Shown one piece after another: positions 5,718 through 48,701 of a DNA stretch of 64,000 nucleotides. This stretch comes from Deltaproteobacteria bacterium (lineage in GTDB: Bacteria; Desulfobacterota; Desulfobacteria; Desulfobacterales; JAHEIW01). How positions within the stretch are numbered: position 1 is the stretch's first letter; each line of letters begins with the position of its first letter. The translations under genes were made by a program, and so were the position numbers. Where the stretch lies: NCBI GenBank assembly GCA_024639185.1, contig JAHEIW010000001.1, positions 24,153 through 88,152 on the forward strand, in the 5' to 3' direction. The notes under the pieces were generated by a model, which saw nothing but the letters and a program-made list of their open reading frames with translations, did no database searches and was not told where the DNA came from.

Positions 5718-5885
5718 AACAGAGAAAATTATAATTATGAATTATTTCAACTGATTAAATTGTGCTGAGTTGCGATCTGAGGTTCAAGCGGGGAAATTTG
5801 TGTATTTTGACACAAAAAATTGCGGAAAATGGCGCAAAATCGGCATTATTTTCCATTTGAATTTAGTTTGTTAGATTTATGTTTG

Positions 5886-5927
5886 AGGCTCAAGGCGTAA
5901 GGCTCAAGGCGTAAGGCTCAAGGCGCA
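5886..5927. repeat. Heptamer tandem repeat (AGGCTCA/AGGCGTA) x6
   Basis: aggctca aggcgta aggctca aggcgta aggctca aggcgca. Confidence 0.9.
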
Positions 5928-6253
5928 GGGCCTTTTGATTGCGGATTTTGGATTTTAGATTTTGGAATAAGGAATCAAAGATTCAAAAAATGAGCGGCCT
6001 GACGATCTTGAGGTGTGTCATTGGAGTATTCATTTACTTCATCCATGATGTTGCTCAAATCTTCTTAACCAAGGGATAGAAATTTCATTTTTTTGATCCC
6101 GGAAGCCGAACGCGCTATAAACAAGCGTTTGGTTTAGGAATGTCGGGAAAGACAGGTTGATCGAGTGAATTTAAAGGGTGGCAGAAAGGCTGGGTTTAAT
6201 TCAAAGAGCCTAACATCGGTATTTTTCCACGATAATATTGTGTCTATACATTA

Positions 6254-6625
6254 TCATTTCGGGAAATATTTAACGTTTTCCATTTCTTCAAAATCTTGAT
6301 CCTGTGTCCAAAGAACGGCGTTATGGGCGCGCGCGGTGGCCAGAATGATGCTATCCGCCATCGGTATTTTATGCTCAAGGCTTATTTTTGCAGCCTGAAG
6401 TGCAAAGTCGTCGGTTAGATCAATAGTGGTTCCTTGTTTCATAAGGGCTACAGCTTGCAGTGCAGCATCTTCGCCGCGTTGCCGATAAACGGTCTTAAAA
6501 ACGTCGTACATGCATATCGTTGGTACGATTAAGTTGTCGATGTCTATTAGCGCATCAGAAAAATGTTCCGCATTGGGACCGTCTGCAAGATATTCAAGCC
6601 AGGCTGACGAATCGACGACATTCAT
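6254..6625 (-). CDS. vapC: VapC family PIN-domain toxin
   Basis: MNVVDSSAWLEY, IPMADSIILATA, LWTQD acidic PIN motifs; ATGA overlap with upstream antitoxin. Confidence 0.9.
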   Translation of the reverse strand: MNVVDSSAWLEYLADGPNAEHFSDALIDIDNLIVPTICMYDVFKTVYRQRGEDAALQAVALMKQGTTIDLTDDFALQAAKISLEHKIPMADSIILATARAHNAVLWTQDQDFEEMENVKYFPK

Positions 6626-6828
6626 ATGCGGTCCGGCTCCCGTTCGACTTCTGTGTTGATTCCCTCGAGAAATCCGCGCATTTCCGAAATTTCTTTTAAC
6701 GGAATCAGCTCGATGCGATTTCCGTAAACCAGGACCTGAACTTTTAAACCTGGTTTCAAACTCAAAGAATCTCTGACTTTACGTGGAATCACGATCTGGA
6801 ATTTTGGCGATATCGTTACGGCTTCCAT
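6622..6828 (-). CDS. AbrB/MazE/SpoVT family antitoxin
   Basis: MEAVTISPKFQIVIPRKVRDSLSLKPG AbrB motif; start moved to ATG 6828 with GGAG RBS. Confidence 0.88.
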   Translation of the reverse strand: MEAVTISPKFQIVIPRKVRDSLSLKPGLKVQVLVYGNRIELIPLKEISEMRGFLEGINTEVEREPDRI

Positions 6829-31619: not shown

Positions 31620-32801
31620 TTGAATTTTATTTTCGAAATTTTGCTGGCGACGTGGGATTTACTGGTGGACGCGTCGGTTTACATTTTGTTCGGATTGCTG
31701 GTGGCCGGGCTGCTGAGGGTCTTTTTAAACCCCAGCTCGATCGCCACTCACCTGGGGCAGGGTCGTTTTAAATCCGTGCTGAAAGCAGCTTTTTTTGGCA
31801 TTCCGATTCCGTTGTGATCGTGCGGCGTGCTGCCCGCAGCCGTGTCGCTGCGCAAACAGGGCGCCAACAATGGCGCTACGACCGCATTTTTGATTTCAAC
31901 CCCCGAATCCGGGGTGGATTCCATTTCGATCACCTATGCCCTGTTGGATCCCATCATGACCGTCGCGCGTCCGGTGGTGGCTTTTATCACTGCGGCGGTT
32001 GCCGGCATTACCGAAAACCTTCTTGGGCCCAACAATGGGTCAACCCGCATCACACCGGATCTGACCTGCCCGGTGGATGGCTGCTGCGACGGGGAAAACT
32101 GTTCATCTGAAGAGCATCGCCAGCACCATACGTTCTGGGAGAAGCTTAGCGCCGGTATGCGCTTTGCCGTCGATGATCTCTGGGAAGATCTGGCTGGCTG
32201 GTTTATGATCGGAATGTTACTGGCCGGGTTGATTACAGTGCTGATTCCGCCCGATATGTTCGGTAAATATCTGGGCTCCGGCCTTCCGGCTATGCTGATC
32301 ATGCTGGCGGTCGGCATTCCGTTGTATATCTGTGCAACGGCCTCCACCCCCATTGCCGCAGCCCTGATTCTTAAAGGCGTCAGCCCGGGCGCCGCTCTGG
32401 TCTTTCTTTTAGCCGGACCGGCCACCAATATCGCCTCTTTAACGGTTTTGACCGGGGTGCTGGGCAAACGGGCTACCGCTATTTACCTGACTTCCATTGC
32501 AGTATGTGCGGTTGGTTTTGGTTTAATCGTTGACCTGGTGTATGCATCGCTGGGAATTTCAGCCCAGGCAGTGGTGGGTCAGGCCTCGGAAATTGTACCG
32601 CATTGGGCGGGGGTGATCGGTGCGTTGATGATTCTGGCGGTGTCGGTTAAACCCATCTGGAAGGCGCTGCGGGCACGCTTCAAACCTGCCGCAAAGGAGG
32701 AAGAAACCATATCTGGGACCGAAAAGACGCTGGCCGAGCCGCTGCCGGTGGTGTCCGATTGCTGCCCAACCTGTGATTGTTCATCTGATTCGCAACGCTA
32801 G
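31620..32801 (+). CDS. Predicted selenoprotein: ArsP/DUF318 (SO_0444-like) metal permease, Sec at TGA 31815-31817
   Basis: ORFs 31620-31817 and 31827-32801 are in frame; read-through gives GIPIPL-U-SCGVLP, matching the family PLCSCGV motif; second repeat PLYICATASTP. Confidence 0.85.
31836..31851 (+). other. Candidate bacterial SECIS for the permease UGA
   Basis: GCAGC-CGTGTC-GCTGC hairpin; loop starts 23 nt after the UGA with G at loop position 2. Confidence 0.55.
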
Positions 32802-43366: not shown

Positions 43367-44113
43367 TTATTTTAGCGCACGAATCAATACGCCCTCGGTG
43401 ATGGCTGAACTGTTAAATCCTGTTTTGGCGACCAGCTCTGGTCTTTTGAAGCCCGCCTTTTGAAGCATTGCCAGGAAATCCTTTCCCGGTATGGCGCCGC
43501 CCTCTCATTGCGCCCAACTCTTAATTATCTTATCTTTTTCCTTGGGCAACTCGCCGATTAGAATTTCGTCGGCAACCATCAGGCGGCCACCTGGTTTTAA
43601 AACGCGGTGGATCTCGCCAAGAGCCCTGGCTTTGTCGGGGACAAGATTTAAGGCCCCGTTTGAGGTGACAACGTTAAAGTTTTCGTTTGAAAAAGGTAAA
43701 TTTTCAACCGAACCTTCCTCTAAGATCACATTTTTTAAATCCGTCATTAAAAGATTTTTTTTAGCCTTGTTAAGCATCGCCGGTGTTAAATCGATCCCCG
43801 CTACTTTCCCCGAAGGACCGGTCATCATCGCAGAATAGAGCGTATCGACACCGGCTCCGCAGCCGACGTCGAGCACGGAATCGCTTTCATTGATGGGTCC
43901 CAATGTAAAAGGATTGCCCACACCGCAATATGAAGCGACAACTTCCGCAGGTAACGCCTGGAGAAGTTCCGGATCATATTGTAAAAGCGTTAGTCCCTCA
44001 TGGCCAGTGGGATACCGAAATAGGCCACCAGGATTTTTGGCGGCCTTTGAATATGTTTTCCGAACCCTCTTTTGAATCCATTTTTTATCTCGATTGGTAA
44101 ATTGAGTTTCCAT
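43367..44113 (-). CDS. Predicted selenoprotein: ArsM-like class I SAM methyltransferase, Sec at TGA 43505-43507
   Basis: YCGVGNP, LDVGCGAG; read-through gives SWAQ-U-EGGAIPGKDFLAMLQKAGF..., matching the ArsM-type W..C..GA...L..AGF segment; TAA at 43367. Confidence 0.85.
43471..43489 (-). other. Candidate SECIS for the methyltransferase UGA
   Basis: CCGGGAAA-GGA-TTTCCTGG 8-bp stem starting 15 nt after the UGA, G-first loop. Confidence 0.65.
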
Positions 44114-44233: not shown

Positions 44234-44497
44234 TTATTGGAGGCTTGCCTGGATAGCGGCTACCAGTTTTTTTTTGGAAATGTCGGTTCCTTCGACTACA
44301 ATTTCATCACCGACCATAACCGCAGGCGCCACCGGCAGATCGAGTTCAAAATATTCGTCGGTCATGTATTCGTCGTTTGGTTTTTCGATGGTTTCAATCT
44401 CGATATCGTATTTGGCACCCAACCTGGGCATCATTTTTTTGAAGTGCTTTCACGGCTTACCGTTGGGCAGGTTCATGAAAAATATGACCTTCAACAT
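44234..44497 (-). CDS. Predicted small thioredoxin-like selenoprotein (NxPxGxxU motif, TsoC-like), Sec at TGA 44450-44452
   Basis: GGAGG RBS, ATG 44497, MLKVIFFMNLPNGKP-U-KHFKKMMPRLG... in frame with ORF 44234-44434; APAVMVGDEIVVEG cis-Pro-type motif; 87 aa. Confidence 0.8.
44417..44429 (-). other. Candidate SECIS for the small selenoprotein
   Basis: GCCCA-GGT-TGGGT hairpin starting 20 nt after the UGA; CAGGT resembles the fdhF SECIS apex. Confidence 0.65.
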
Positions 44498-44583: not shown

Positions 44584-46320
44584 TTACTTGCTTTTAATCG
44601 CTGCCATCCGCACCAAAAATTGATCCACCGGCAGATAATCTACTAGGCGCAATTCGCGCCGTTCTTTTCCCTGACGATCTAAGAACACAACCGTGGGAAC
44701 GCCTCTAACACGATATTGACGTAATAAGTCTTCATAGACCGGATTGCCCTTTCGGGTGAGGTCTACCTTTATCATGATAAAATCTTTTTTAGTCTGTTTG
44801 ACAATTTCAGGATGATGAAAGGTGATTTCATCCAGTTCGCGACAGGGCGCACACCAGTCGGCATAAAAATCAAGGATCACCGGCTTTTTTAATCTCTGGG
44901 CTTCCACCAATAACGATTCTGAATAGGGCTGCCAGGCCAAGCCGGGACCGCGCATCAACCAGGAGCCGATAAGGACAGTGGCGATGATCAGGCCCACGAT
45001 GGCCGCAGCGATCCTGAGCCAATCAAATCCGCGAAATTCGGCGCGGCTCCGATCTATCCAGCCAAGGTGTAATGCAGCCGCCAAAGCCACGGCGGATAAT
45101 AAAAACACTTTTACAGTACCGGGTAATAACGGCTGAATAAAATAAGCGGCCATGCCCACCAGAATCCAGCCCAAAAGTTTTTTGACCCACAGCATCCACT
45201 CACCGGAACGGGGAAGATTGCTCAGCTGTCCGGAAAACAGTGCCAGAAAAAACAGGGGCAGGCCCAGGCCCAGGCTCAGGGTAAAAAAGATTAAAAATCC
45301 GATCCATAGGTTTCCAAGCGTGGCGACCCAGGTCAGCAGCCCCAAGATGAATGGACCAATACACGCGGAAGCCACCACTCCCAAAGTTAGGCCCATGAAC
45401 AGGCTACCCATGTAACCGGTATACGTTTTTGACGCTGCCTGCGATAAAGCATAGGGAAGTCGTATTTCCCAAAGCCCAAAGAGACTGGTCGCAAAAAAAA
45501 TCAGGACGACCGCCACCAGAGCGAGCACTAAAGGATGCTGCAGCAGACTGCCAAACATCCCGCCGGTTAGAGCAGCAATAACGCCGAGCACAGAGTTGGT
45601 AATTGCCAGCCCTCCGATATAGCAGGCTCCATGGATGATGAGCTTTTGCTGGCTTTCAGCGCGCCCGCCACCGAAATAGGAAACCGTAATCGGAATTAAG
45701 GGGTAGATGCAGGGTGTCAGGTTCAGGGCGATTCCGCCGGCAAAAATTCCCAAAAACGTCCATATCATCGCCCAGCCATGTAAGGGTTTTGACTGTTGTG
45801 GGGCCAGTGAGGTTTCCGAAAGACCGGCTGGAGAGCTGTCAATCGGCAACCCCCGGGCATGCCATTCCGGATAGCCCATGGGTTCACGAAAAATATTTTG
45901 ATAACCAAGTTTTACGGCCACCCGGGCCGCCGAGTCGCTGCGGGCTCATGCCAGCCCTGCTCAGTAAAATACAATGAAACGATTTTGGTCTGAGCCCAGT
46001 AATTTTTTGAGGGCGCCTTTGTTGCGCCAGCGCGACAGCCAGGTCGGCTCCATTGGAAAATTCACCGCTTTTTGAATATGGCCGGTGCGGTATTCCCACT
46101 CCTGGCGTGTATCGACCAGCAGGATAGAATCCGATTTTATCTTATACTTGCTGGCTAAATCATCTGTGGTTATCAACTGATAGCCGCCTTGACGGGCTTC
46201 GGTCATCACATCCTGCCAGGTAGCTGTTTTGGGAGCGACCACCCGATTGGCTTGCCAGATGTAACCTGCGGTCAGCGCCACAGCTGCCAGCGCCAGCAAA
46301 GTTTTTTTTAAACTGCTCAT
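44584..46320 (-). CDS. Predicted double-selenocysteine rhodanese-DsbD(beta+gamma) fusion; Sec at 45961-45963 and 45946-45948
   Basis: ORFs 45961-46332 and 44584-45921 are in frame and joined by IVFY-U-AGLA-U-ARSDSAARVAVKLGY; then TM Cys motifs LTPCIYP and SACIGP, and thioredoxin WCAPC; start ATG 46320 or GTG 46332. Confidence 0.85.
45914..45930 (-). other. Candidate SECIS downstream of the tandem UGAs
   Basis: GCGGCC-CGGGT-GGCCGT hairpin; loop starts 21 nt after the second and 36 nt after the first UGA. Confidence 0.55.
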
Positions 46321-46404: not shown

Positions 46405-47082
46405 TTAGACCTCTTCGTTTCCAATAATCGGAAACCCCAGAGCCCGAAAATCCTGAATGCCTTCCTCAAGTCGAATCGCCTTGAATCCACGAGCGCGAAG
46501 AATTTCCACAGCCATAACCGAAAGAACACAATACGGACCACGGCAATAGGCCACAATTTCCTGGTCGCGCGGTAAATCCGACAAATGCTGCTGCAGCTCT
46601 TTGAGCGGAACGGACAGGGCGCCGGCAATGTGCCCGGCGTTGAATTCCACAGACGGGCGAACATCCAGAACGGTCACCGCATCTTCGCGCACGAGTTTTA
46701 GAAGCTTTGTGCGGTCCACCGGCATCATACCTTCTCTGCCATCCAGGAAACGATTTTTGATTTGTTCCACTTCGGCCAGGCGGCTTTCGGCCAGCAGACG
46801 CATGGACCGAAAAAACTCGCAGACCTGCTGATCGGCAAGCCGATAAATGACATACAAGCCATCTTTGTCAGCCGCCACCAGCCGGGCAGCTCGCAGGACC
46901 TGCAAATGCTGGGAGGTATTGGCGATGGTCAAACCAGATTCGTTGGCCAGGGCCTCTACCGTGCGAGGTCCCTGGCAAAGGAGGTCCAGCAGCTCCAAGC
47001 GTCTGGGACTGGAAATCGCCTTGCCGACGCGCGCGAATTGCTCATATATCGCATCTTTAAATGCTCGGGTTGGATTTTTCAT
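46405..47082 (-). CDS. ArsR-family regulator fused to a rhodanese domain
   Basis: KAISSPRRLELLDLL, NTSQHLQVL HTH; LDVRP, GHIAGA, YCRGPYC; ATG 47082. Confidence 0.92.
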   Translation of the reverse strand: MKNPTRAFKDAIYEQFARVGKAISSPRRLELLDLLCQGPRTVEALANESGLTIANTSQHLQVLRAARLVAADKDGLYVIYRLADQQVCEFFRSMRLLAESRLAEVEQIKNRFLDGREGMMPVDRTKLLKLVREDAVTVLDVRPSVEFNAGHIAGALSVPLKELQQHLSDLPRDQEIVAYCRGPYCVLSVMAVEILRARGFKAIRLEEGIQDFRALGFPIIGNEEV

Positions 47083-47085
47083 TTT

Positions 47086-47129
47086 ATATCCTATAGTATT
47101 CAATTGATTAATTGAATACTATAGGATAT
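47086..47129. promoter_or_regulatory. 44-bp palindromic operator of the ArsR-rhodanese gene
   Basis: ATATCCTATAGTATTCAATT-gatt-AATTGAATACTATAGGATAT; minus-strand TTGACA at 47139-47144 with its -10 inside the palindrome. Confidence 0.8.
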
Positions 47130-47498: not shown

Positions 47499-47708
47499 TT
47501 AAAGACGGTTGTTTTTTAAACTGTCCACCACCTGGCGGACGTCTGCCAAGCATCAACTGCCACTGGGATTTTTAGTGGCACACTCACAGGTCCCCATCTT
47601 CTTTGCCATGGCAATTTTTTCCATGATTGTTGACCGACCGTGTTTCACAAAATCGCGCTGGATATTTTCAACTGTGTAGCCAAAACAATAGCAAATTAAG
47701 TCACTCAT
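47499..47708 (-). CDS. Predicted selenoprotein: BFD-like [2Fe-2S] (CopZ-N-like) protein, Sec at TGA 47553-47555; not in ORF track
   Basis: MSDLICYCFGYT...GTCECATKNPSGS-U-CLADVRQVVDSLKNNRL; family motif CYCF...CxC..NPxGxCCL with the first C of CC read from TGA; 69 aa. Confidence 0.85.
47523..47540 (-). other. Candidate SECIS for the BFD-like protein
   Basis: GTCCGCC-AGGT-GGTGGAC 7-bp stem starting 12 nt after the UGA. Confidence 0.7.
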
Positions 47709-47740
47709 GAATGTTTTCAACTTAAATCGTATATGAACAG

Positions 47741-48214
47741 CTATTCATGCTTAATACGTCCAAAGCCGTTTCTGCGTTTGCCTTCGAATAATATAATCAG
47801 CAGACCGCAAAGAAAATAGAAAATGTCGCGTAGCACTGTCATTTTAGAAGAGCTGCTATTTCCGTTTTGATCGGCAGAAAAACATCCGCAATCAAATTCG
47901 TGGCCGCGAATAATATTGATTGTTAAAGCCGCCATGAAGGCCAGCAGCAAAATATTAATGGTGATGGCTGCCGAGCGCGGGTAGAATCCAAGGATGAGTG
48001 CAAGTCCGGCAACAAGCTCGAGAAACGGAATAATGATGGCGATCAGATTGATTAAAACATGCGGAAATAGGGCATAGCCATAAACAATTTTGGCAAAATC
48101 TGTCGGTGACAGGATTTTGTGGAAACTGGCGTAGATGAAGGTGAGCCCCAGAATCCAGCGGGCCGCCAGTTCAATCCAGCTATTATTGATGATGGATAGC
48201 TTAAAATTTTCCAA
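47741..48214 (-). CDS. MauE/DoxX family redox membrane protein
   Basis: RWILGLTFIYASFHKI, IPFLELVAG, FDCGCF; probable TTG start 48214 overlapping the upstream gene. Confidence 0.85.
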   Translation of the reverse strand: MENFKLSIINNSWIELAARWILGLTFIYASFHKILSPTDFAKIVYGYALFPHVLINLIAIIIPFLELVAGLALILGFYPRSAAITINILLLAFMAALTINIIRGHEFDCGCFSADQNGNSSSSKMTVLRDIFYFLCGLLIILFEGKRRNGFGRIKHE

Positions 48215-48701
48215 TGGGATAGCCCTCTGCTTCCCAGCCCGGAAAGCCGTCAATAAAGATGCGCACTTCACTGAACCCAACGTCTGAGAGCAACCGTGCG
48301 AGATGATGGCTGTCTTCGCAGGTTCGGCCGGAACAATAGGTAACAATGGGTTGATCCGGCGGGTACTGATTTATGAACGATTCTATTTTTTCATCAAATT
48401 GGCCGATCGGCAATGATATGGCTCCCGGGATGTGGCCGCTTTCATAGTCCTCTGTTGAACGTGCGTCTACAAAAAGTGTGTCATCGTCATAAAATATTTT
48501 GGCGGCATCGCTTACCCGGTCGATTTCAGCAATGCGATACCCATCCTCACCCGGGGCATTGGGGCGAATGACCCCTTTAGCCGTGTCCCACTGACCTACC
48601 AGGGCAATGCCTCTGGGCGACAGATGGTTCACCACCAGCGCCAGCGCCACTGAAACACCCACCAGGATCATAATTTCCTTTATCGTTTTTCCGTAAATCA
48701 T
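48201..48701 (-). CDS. Membrane-anchored rhodanese domain protein
   Basis: N-terminal TM, VDAR, GHIPGA, TYCSGRTCEDS, GFPGW. Confidence 0.9.
   Translation of the reverse strand: MIYGKTIKEIMILVGVSVALALVVNHLSPRGIALVGQWDTAKGVIRPNAPGEDGYRIAEIDRVSDAAKIFYDDDTLFVDARSTEDYESGHIPGAISLPIGQFDEKIESFINQYPPDQPIVTYCSGRTCEDSHHLARLLSDVGFSEVRIFIDGFPGWEAEGYPIGKF

Follow-up and report, generated by a model that had tools for sequence, protein, structure and literature searches.

We found that a gene on the minus strand of a 64,000-nucleotide stretch of a deltaproteobacterial contig (JAHEIW010000001.1; the whole stretch is hereafter called the window) almost certainly encodes a member of the TsoB family (NF045694), and that both of its in-frame UGA codons most likely stand for selenocysteine (Sec, U). 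Translated with TGA as Sec, positions 46320-44587 give a single chain of 578 amino acids, in which U120 and U125 are the only recoded residues and which joins a rhodanese to the membrane and thioredoxin parts of DsbD. The family model matches this chain with 993.4 bits (cut-off 805), residues 6-575 covering model positions 2-571 of 572, and reaches 981.2 bits on the raw DNA. The gene is composed as follows:

44584..46320, minus strand: tsoB coding sequence, 578 aa with TGA as Sec, TAA stop at 44586-44584
46246..46314, minus strand: predicted signal or anchor helix, residues 3-25, KK followed by a hydrophobic run
45841..46224, minus strand: rhodanese domain, about residues 33-160, PF00581 with E 3.8e-13, predicted periplasmic
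45963-45961, minus strand: first UGA codon, U120, at the rhodanese catalytic position and the end of strand 115-119
45948-45946, minus strand: second UGA codon, U125, at the +5 position of the loop
45930-45914, minus strand: SECIS-like hairpin, 6-bp stem, loop CGGGU (45924-45920), -9.5 kcal/mol
44956..45771, minus strand: DsbD-beta, residues 184-455, PF02683 with E 9e-41, eight predicted transmembrane (TM) helices, C204 and C320
44587..44943, minus strand: DsbD-gamma thioredoxin domain with WCAPC (C490/C493), top PDB matches to DsbD C-terminal domains

Gene calling with table 11 splits tsoB into two in-frame open reading frames (46332-45961 and 45921-44584), which a preliminary description of the window had joined into one fused protein of about 578 residues. 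The codons TAC TGA GCA GGG CTG GCA TGA GCC CGC AGC are indeed present on the minus strand, and the single frame with Sec only at residues 120 and 125 bears this reading out. A plus-strand reading of the locus was rejected, as that frame is closed by many stops. Pfam places a rhodanese (61-155), DsbD_TM (187-398) and a thioredoxin domain (about 462-569) along the chain in this order, and the cysteines named in the preliminary description, C204 (LTPC), C320 (ASAC) and the WCAPC pair, were all recovered, as were the loops YCRGPYC and YCSGRTC of the two neighbouring rhodaneses. An alignment of 45 sequences shows no substitution at C204, C320, C490, C493, R127 or either Sec position, and most homologs share the KK and hydrophobic N-terminus ahead of the rhodanese.

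Hydropathy delineates eight TM segments between residues 184 and 455, and lysine and arginine counts of 2, 0, 2, 0, 1, 0 and 4 in the loops between them follow a positive-inside pattern. On this topology, called with a simple hydropathy scale rather than a topology predictor, the rhodanese and the gamma domain are predicted to sit on the same, outer side of the membrane. The AlphaFold model (mean pLDDT 77, pTM 0.55) contains the helix at residues 3-25 and a rhodanese block with pLDDT 77-95 across residues 31-160, in which U120 ends strand 115-119 and U125 lies just ahead of helix 127-137; the arrangement of the domains cannot be read from it because of the pTM value and the low-confidence linker at 165-181. 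The top structural matches are DsbD-gamma domains and rhodaneses, and for the gamma domain DsbD C-terminal domains were best by sequence (E 3.5e-16) as well as by fold.

Both UGAs are most likely read as Sec. The host genome contains tRNA-Sec, its SelA, SelB and SelD each exceed their profile cut-offs, and SelD itself includes one in-frame TGA. Among 78 loci examined, 62 have a TsoB rhodanese, and in every one of these both codons are TGA and stand in frame with the DsbD part (the 62, among which the window's own locus and some duplicates are counted, correspond to 53 distinct segments), while the other 16 are other rhodaneses, thioredoxins or DsbD proteins. All 25 additional loci drawn from a sample of the whole phylum show the same pair, and all 30 matches above the family cut-off in 401 genomes of the phylum have two TGAs. 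The terminal stops of 46 full-length homologs, in contrast, vary (TAA 28, TGA 11, TAG 6, one beyond the contig end). The argument that paired nonsense mutations would be an improbable accident has thus held up. Counting Cys and Sec variants, as had been proposed, yielded U/U in every DNA locus examined and C/C in one protein (P0002), with no U/C or C/U form of TsoB, although DNA searches seeded with a U/U sequence and model may favour close U/U forms. P0002 is a natural, stop-free fused homolog (61% identical, 913 bits) with Cys at both positions aligned to U120 and U125 (CAGPDC). Two further TsoB-like fusions, P0090 (GADLSC, G/C; 802.9 bits, just under the cut-off of 805) and the partial sequence P0115 (GADLSD, G/D), possibly form a degenerate branch.

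It is very improbable, and largely refuted, that the two TGAs are true stops, whether of two genes, of a pseudogene or under a general reassignment of TGA. Automatic annotation would seem to speak for such stops, since 82 of 83 matches among gene calls of 317-1012 aa span only the part after the second TGA, and the database entries for the window's own two pieces are 119 and 431 aa long. Yet the codons at these sites are always TGA and never TAA or TAG, whereas TGA ends only 11 of the 46 homologs; the four codons between them retain Gly-Leu with free third positions; a fused Cys/Cys homolog exists; a split would run through the rhodanese active site; and the internal GTG, which lies within the hairpin, is preceded by no Shine-Dalgarno-like sequence. 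Contigs from two public sequencing runs agree with the window over both UGA codons (0 differences), but they are not independent support because they may be the source data. As a separate observation on the host's genetic code, another contig (C269) carries tRNA-Pyl (6610-6683) and a PylS above its cut-off (5738-6469, L111), so that the organism appears to use both Sec and pyrrolysine.

One hairpin downstream of the two codons likely serves both of them, as judged from its conservation and spacing. The loop begins 21 nt past the second UGA and 36 nt past the first. According to the accessible parts of a recent review (PMC13188914), bacterial SECIS elements have a loop of 3-9 nt with G at position 1 or 2, a stem of 4-16 bp, a distance of 16-37 nt from the UGA and an energy of at most -7.5 kcal/mol; the tsoB hairpin agrees with this model, and both spacings fall within its range. 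In an alignment of the 53 segments, the hairpin occupies columns 34-39 and 45-50 after the first UGA and is paired in 99.4% of 312 cells, compared with 21-77% in slid controls. The column pair 36-48, both synonymous third positions, covaries (GC 35, AU 13, CG 2, GU 1, unpaired 1), and none of 500 shuffles matched the hairpin's pairing or covariation score, statistics that are inflated by kinship among the sequences and, for covariation, come mostly from this one pair. No second conserved hairpin of this kind was found in the 75 aligned columns, and a single covarying element at 21 and 36 nt could therefore serve both UGAs. A lower stem (columns 21-27 and 54-59) is 88% paired, which may reflect protein constraint.

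The conserved hairpin is seen only by alignment: when longer contexts are folded, the minimum-energy structure of the window's own sequence is a different one, and folding of the single sequence past the UGAs gave other hairpins that did not surpass shuffled sequences (z -0.71 to 0.86). One of these, directly after the first UGA, was rejected because its loop follows the codon by 8 nt, a distance that the model does not allow. In four sediment or marine metagenome assemblies, summed contig depth peaks at 45914-45963 (126-327, mostly below 50 elsewhere), as would be expected if nucleotide-level conservation of this segment spans many organisms.

The fusion itself is known. In the portion of PMC13188914 (2026) available to us, Table 1 lists TsoB as "predicted with high confidence", with the motif UxxxxU and two Sec, and names Haft & Tolstoy 2025 (mSystems 10:e0141724) as its source. 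A double-Sec rhodanese-DsbD fusion is therefore not novel; the remark of the preliminary description on closely spaced Sec pairs stands insofar as they are uncommon, yet they are not unique, as the same part of the review also includes UxxU selenoproteins. The parts of PMC13510729 and PMC5317093 at hand contain nothing that bears on TsoB. Our literature search, which did not reach the original TsoB paper, returned no functional study of TsoB or of any rhodanese-DsbD fusion. TsoB exceeds its cut-off in 13 of 61 genomes of relatives and in 26 of 401 sampled genomes of the phylum.

To the known family our data add covariation support for one SECIS within reach of both UGAs, a naturally occurring Cys/Cys form, and direct evidence for an exchange of the DsbD alpha domain for a rhodanese. 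Canonical DsbD begins with an Ig-like domain that holds a Cys pair (DsbD_N, PF11412), and Pfam found no match to it in TsoB. The nearest relatives outside the family (L107-L110) share the beta-gamma core yet carry DsbD_N in the same slot, which indicates that the N-terminal slot was swapped; their alpha domains have the same C-x4-C spacing (YQACSSTSC). Together with the predicted placement of rhodanese and gamma on one side of the membrane, this supports the view of the preliminary description that the rhodanese would occupy the alpha position. TsoB retains two further canonical DsbD traits, a beta Cys pair within eight TM helices and a CxxC in gamma. A tree of 27 beta-gamma cores places L107-L110 among the TsoB rows without resolution and for this reason does not give the direction of the swap. 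DsbD_N is also present in L002, a separate and distant DsbD-family protein of the host genome (contig C417), in L024 and in L076, where a DsbD-family protein (425-2686) has the permuted order beta-gamma-alpha with DsbD_N at residues 506-616. At another locus (L071), the TsoB beta domain has a 60-residue deletion and two tsoC matches are found.

The loop of the TsoB rhodanese reads FY-U-AGLA-U-ARS. In solved rhodaneses, the residue at the position of U120 is the Cys of FYC, and relative to single-Cys rhodaneses the TsoB loop has a two-residue insertion. Among the best 150 relatives of the domain, 78 have C-x4-C, 35 end just before the first site, 10 have one Cys, 7 are of other types, 3 end in the loop and 17 are unaligned. 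Two other rhodaneses of the host genome have Sec at the +5 position, which points to a catalytic role of this position; these are multi-domain proteins with C-x4-U loops, YCGGLKU and YCGGPTU (C160, ~32200-32550, L004/L006; C313, ~14170, L007), one of which adjoins a C-x4-C repeat. P0180 (CRSFRC) and P0198 (CRSLQC) combine related C-x4-C rhodaneses with a redoxin/AhpC-TSA-like domain in one chain, so that a rhodanese of the TsoB type is again joined to a thioredoxin fold.

On the minus strand, tsoB follows a promoter-like site and an ArsR-rhodanese gene and precedes tsoC and an ArsM-like methyltransferase gene:

47499-47720, minus strand: CopZ-N-like small protein with in-frame UGA at 47555-47553 (GSUC), followed by a SECIS-like hairpin
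47144-47116, minus strand: sigma70-like promoter TTGACA-17-TAGTAT, best site with 10 of 12 matches, upstream of the regulator
46405..47103, minus strand: ArsR-HTH/rhodanese fusion (YCRGPYC), profile and Pfam matches
44234..44497, minus strand: tsoC, small selenoprotein (NLPNGKPU; UGA at 44452-44450), NF045708 with 143.5 bits, cut-off 45
43367..44113, minus strand: ArsM-like methyltransferase, 248 aa, UGA at 43507-43505 (WAQUEGG), loosely linked

The promoter is a consensus match only, as such sites occur in the region at near-chance frequency (10 versus 7.2). The ArsR-rhodanese fusion is the probable regulator of the operon; it scores 45.1 bits with the TsoR model (NF045707), below the cut-off of 115. 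TsoC is without a signal peptide. Of 27 motif matches, 26 have its single Sec, and a second thiol is not conserved. That TsoC might be glutaredoxin-like is no more than a lead, as the glutaredoxin which it matches by sequence in the PDB falls short of significance (E 1.4), and the pLDDT of the single-sequence TsoC model (54.6) is too low for a fold search. At one locus (L047), TAA or TAG stands at the TsoC Sec position. The ArsM-like protein is a stand-alone form: it aligns with no more than the N-terminal portion of the multi-Sec ArsM fusion models, and its scores stay below all their cut-offs. Likewise, the CopZ-N-like protein, the fourth candidate selenoprotein within ~4.4 kb, scores below the cut-offs of NF047645 and NF045877.

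In the set L033-L075 (43 loci, of which many have short flanks), tsoC lies beside tsoB in 31, an ArsR match lies upstream in 21 (16 strong with 65-93% identity, 5 weak), tsoA occurs in 8 and ArsM in 4. Searches for tsoA (LULAxC) gave no match in the host genome, which is 91.8% complete (best E 0.42), although the same queries find 8 other loci, and between regulator and tsoB there is no room for it. Two further C-x4-C rhodaneses are encoded upstream of tsoB. At 47741-48701 (minus strand), a membrane-anchored C-x4-C rhodanese is followed by a MauE/DoxX gene, and farther upstream come pirin, WrbA and a CDF transporter, a redox and stress block that is common only to close relatives (5-6 of the 43 loci).

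From this architecture, TsoB could be a membrane-anchored periplasmic reductase of sulfane sulfur that works like DsbD with a rhodanese for alpha, a tentative proposal that we consider plausible, if somewhat short of an even chance for the mechanism as a whole. During translation, SelB would bind the single hairpin at 45930-45914, which likely serves both UGAs. Electrons would enter at C204/C320 from a thioredoxin-like donor in the cytoplasm, probably TsoC or thioredoxin itself; C204/C320 would pass them to the periplasmic C490/C493 pair, and this in turn would reduce U120/U125. With a polysulfide or persulfide outside the cytoplasm as substrate, U120 might then accept sulfane sulfur (or selenium) from it, U125 would resolve the adduct with release of sulfide, and the remaining diselenide would be re-reduced by gamma. 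The ArsR-rhodanese regulator, presumably a sulfur sensor, likely would control the gene. We infer the electron path from the analogy to DsbD, in which, as stated in the accessible text of Cho et al. 2012 (PMC3322552), electrons run from cytoplasmic thioredoxin over beta and gamma to alpha, and alpha sets the substrates.

Several points weigh on this proposal. In P0090 and P0115 the first catalytic residue is missing, so its presence is not needed for the fusion to be retained. As a donor to a DsbD-type protein TsoC would be awkward, since its one Sec is accompanied by no conserved second thiol. The redox potentials of diselenides are very low, and a gamma-type dithiol may reduce diselenides poorly. 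A complex prediction for gamma and rhodanese of P0002 (score 0.00) weighs neither way. In a bolder version, which we regard as rather doubtful, TsoB would constitute a fourth class of DsbD-type transporters beside DsbD, ScsB and CcdA and would have an enzyme as its last domain: a rhodanese would cycle through a diselenide and reduce periplasmic polysulfide or selenium species with TsoC-fed cytoplasmic electrons, and one SECIS would remain within reach of both UGAs while the ribosome advances by five codons. Neither this mechanism nor the decoding of two UGAs by one SECIS was found in the literature searched; the original TsoB paper, beyond that search, may already propose either.

Two other functions of a genuine double-Sec protein have to be weighed against sulfane-sulfur reduction. 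The rhodanese might only relay electrons, as the alpha domains of DsbD and ScsB do, to periplasmic proteins such as the anchored C-x4-C rhodanese, with no small-molecule substrate. We think this unlikely, even though the rhodanese takes precisely the place of alpha, the same C-x4-C spacing recurs in the closest relatives' alpha domains, a possible partner and a MauE/DoxX gene are encoded upstream of tsoB here, and the available part of PMC3322552 documents for ScsB that unrelated alpha domains can relay. A pure relay fits less well with the loop arginine R127, which is kept in all 45 sequences, with the anchored rhodanese and MauE/DoxX each occurring in only 6 of the 43 loci, and with a host that already has a separate alpha-bearing DsbD-family protein. 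Slightly less likely again, the two selenolates could act in the periplasm by binding or reducing a soft metal(loid) (arsenite or arsenate, Hg, Cu), while the DsbD core only keeps them reduced. The concern over diselenide redox potential would not arise in such a protein, the TsoB rhodanese has weak similarity to Cdc25-type rhodanese folds, and the ArsR-type regulator, the ArsM-like and CopZ-N-like selenoproteins and the CDF transporter point equally to metal(loid)s. These neighbours, however, are mostly limited to close relatives (ArsM 4, CopZ-N 5 and CDF 5 of the 43 loci), and the regulator's own rhodanese domain suggests sulfur sensing.

As the family is named and curated, our observations carry little weight as a discovery. 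They concern annotation, where pipelines break tsoB into a 119-aa stub and a 'DsbD/CcdA' fragment, and TsoB is also a tractable problem, for which the Cys/Cys homolog P0002 allows selenium-free biochemistry. If the sulfane-sulfur mechanism is true, TsoB would tie thioredoxin-type reducing power to extracytoplasmic sulfur or selenium chemistry in sediment Desulfobacterota, and would offer a compact natural test of one bacterial SECIS decoding two nearby UGAs.

TsoB resembles DsbD (alpha-beta-gamma in E. coli; PDB 1vrs, 2fwe) and L107-L110 in its 8-TM beta domain with two Cys, its thioredoxin-fold gamma domain with WCxxC and an N-terminal domain that is predicted to be periplasmic and holds a redox pair. 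Unlike them, it has no Ig-like DsbD_N but a two-Sec rhodanese instead, and it scores 264 with PRK00293, below the cut-off of 330. With ScsB it shares a beta-gamma core joined to a different, non-homologous N-terminal domain, and ScsB is a precedent for such an exchange including the change of substrates that goes with it, as described in the accessible text of PMC3322552. ScsB-alpha, however, is not a rhodanese, and the Lys typical of ScsB eight residues past the first beta Cys is absent in TsoB, where C204+8 is Thr. Single-domain and tandem rhodaneses (PDB 6mxv, 2hhg; GlpE/PspE) and Sec-rhodaneses (NF041203) have the same fold and a catalytic residue at the FY(C/U) strand end, whereas TsoB has a loop two residues longer, a second chalcogen at +5 and a fusion to a transmembrane electron relay. 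Sud of Wolinella, a periplasmic rhodanese sulfurtransferase, is alike in fold and FY(C/U) position and is set apart in the same way. With the TsoB family, the protein studied here agrees in its full-length match above the cut-off, U-x4-U with two Sec, the domain order and a tsoC directly downstream; only its version of the operon differs, with no tsoA found, an ArsR-rhodanese regulator below the TsoR cut-off and an ArsM-like selenoprotein after tsoC.
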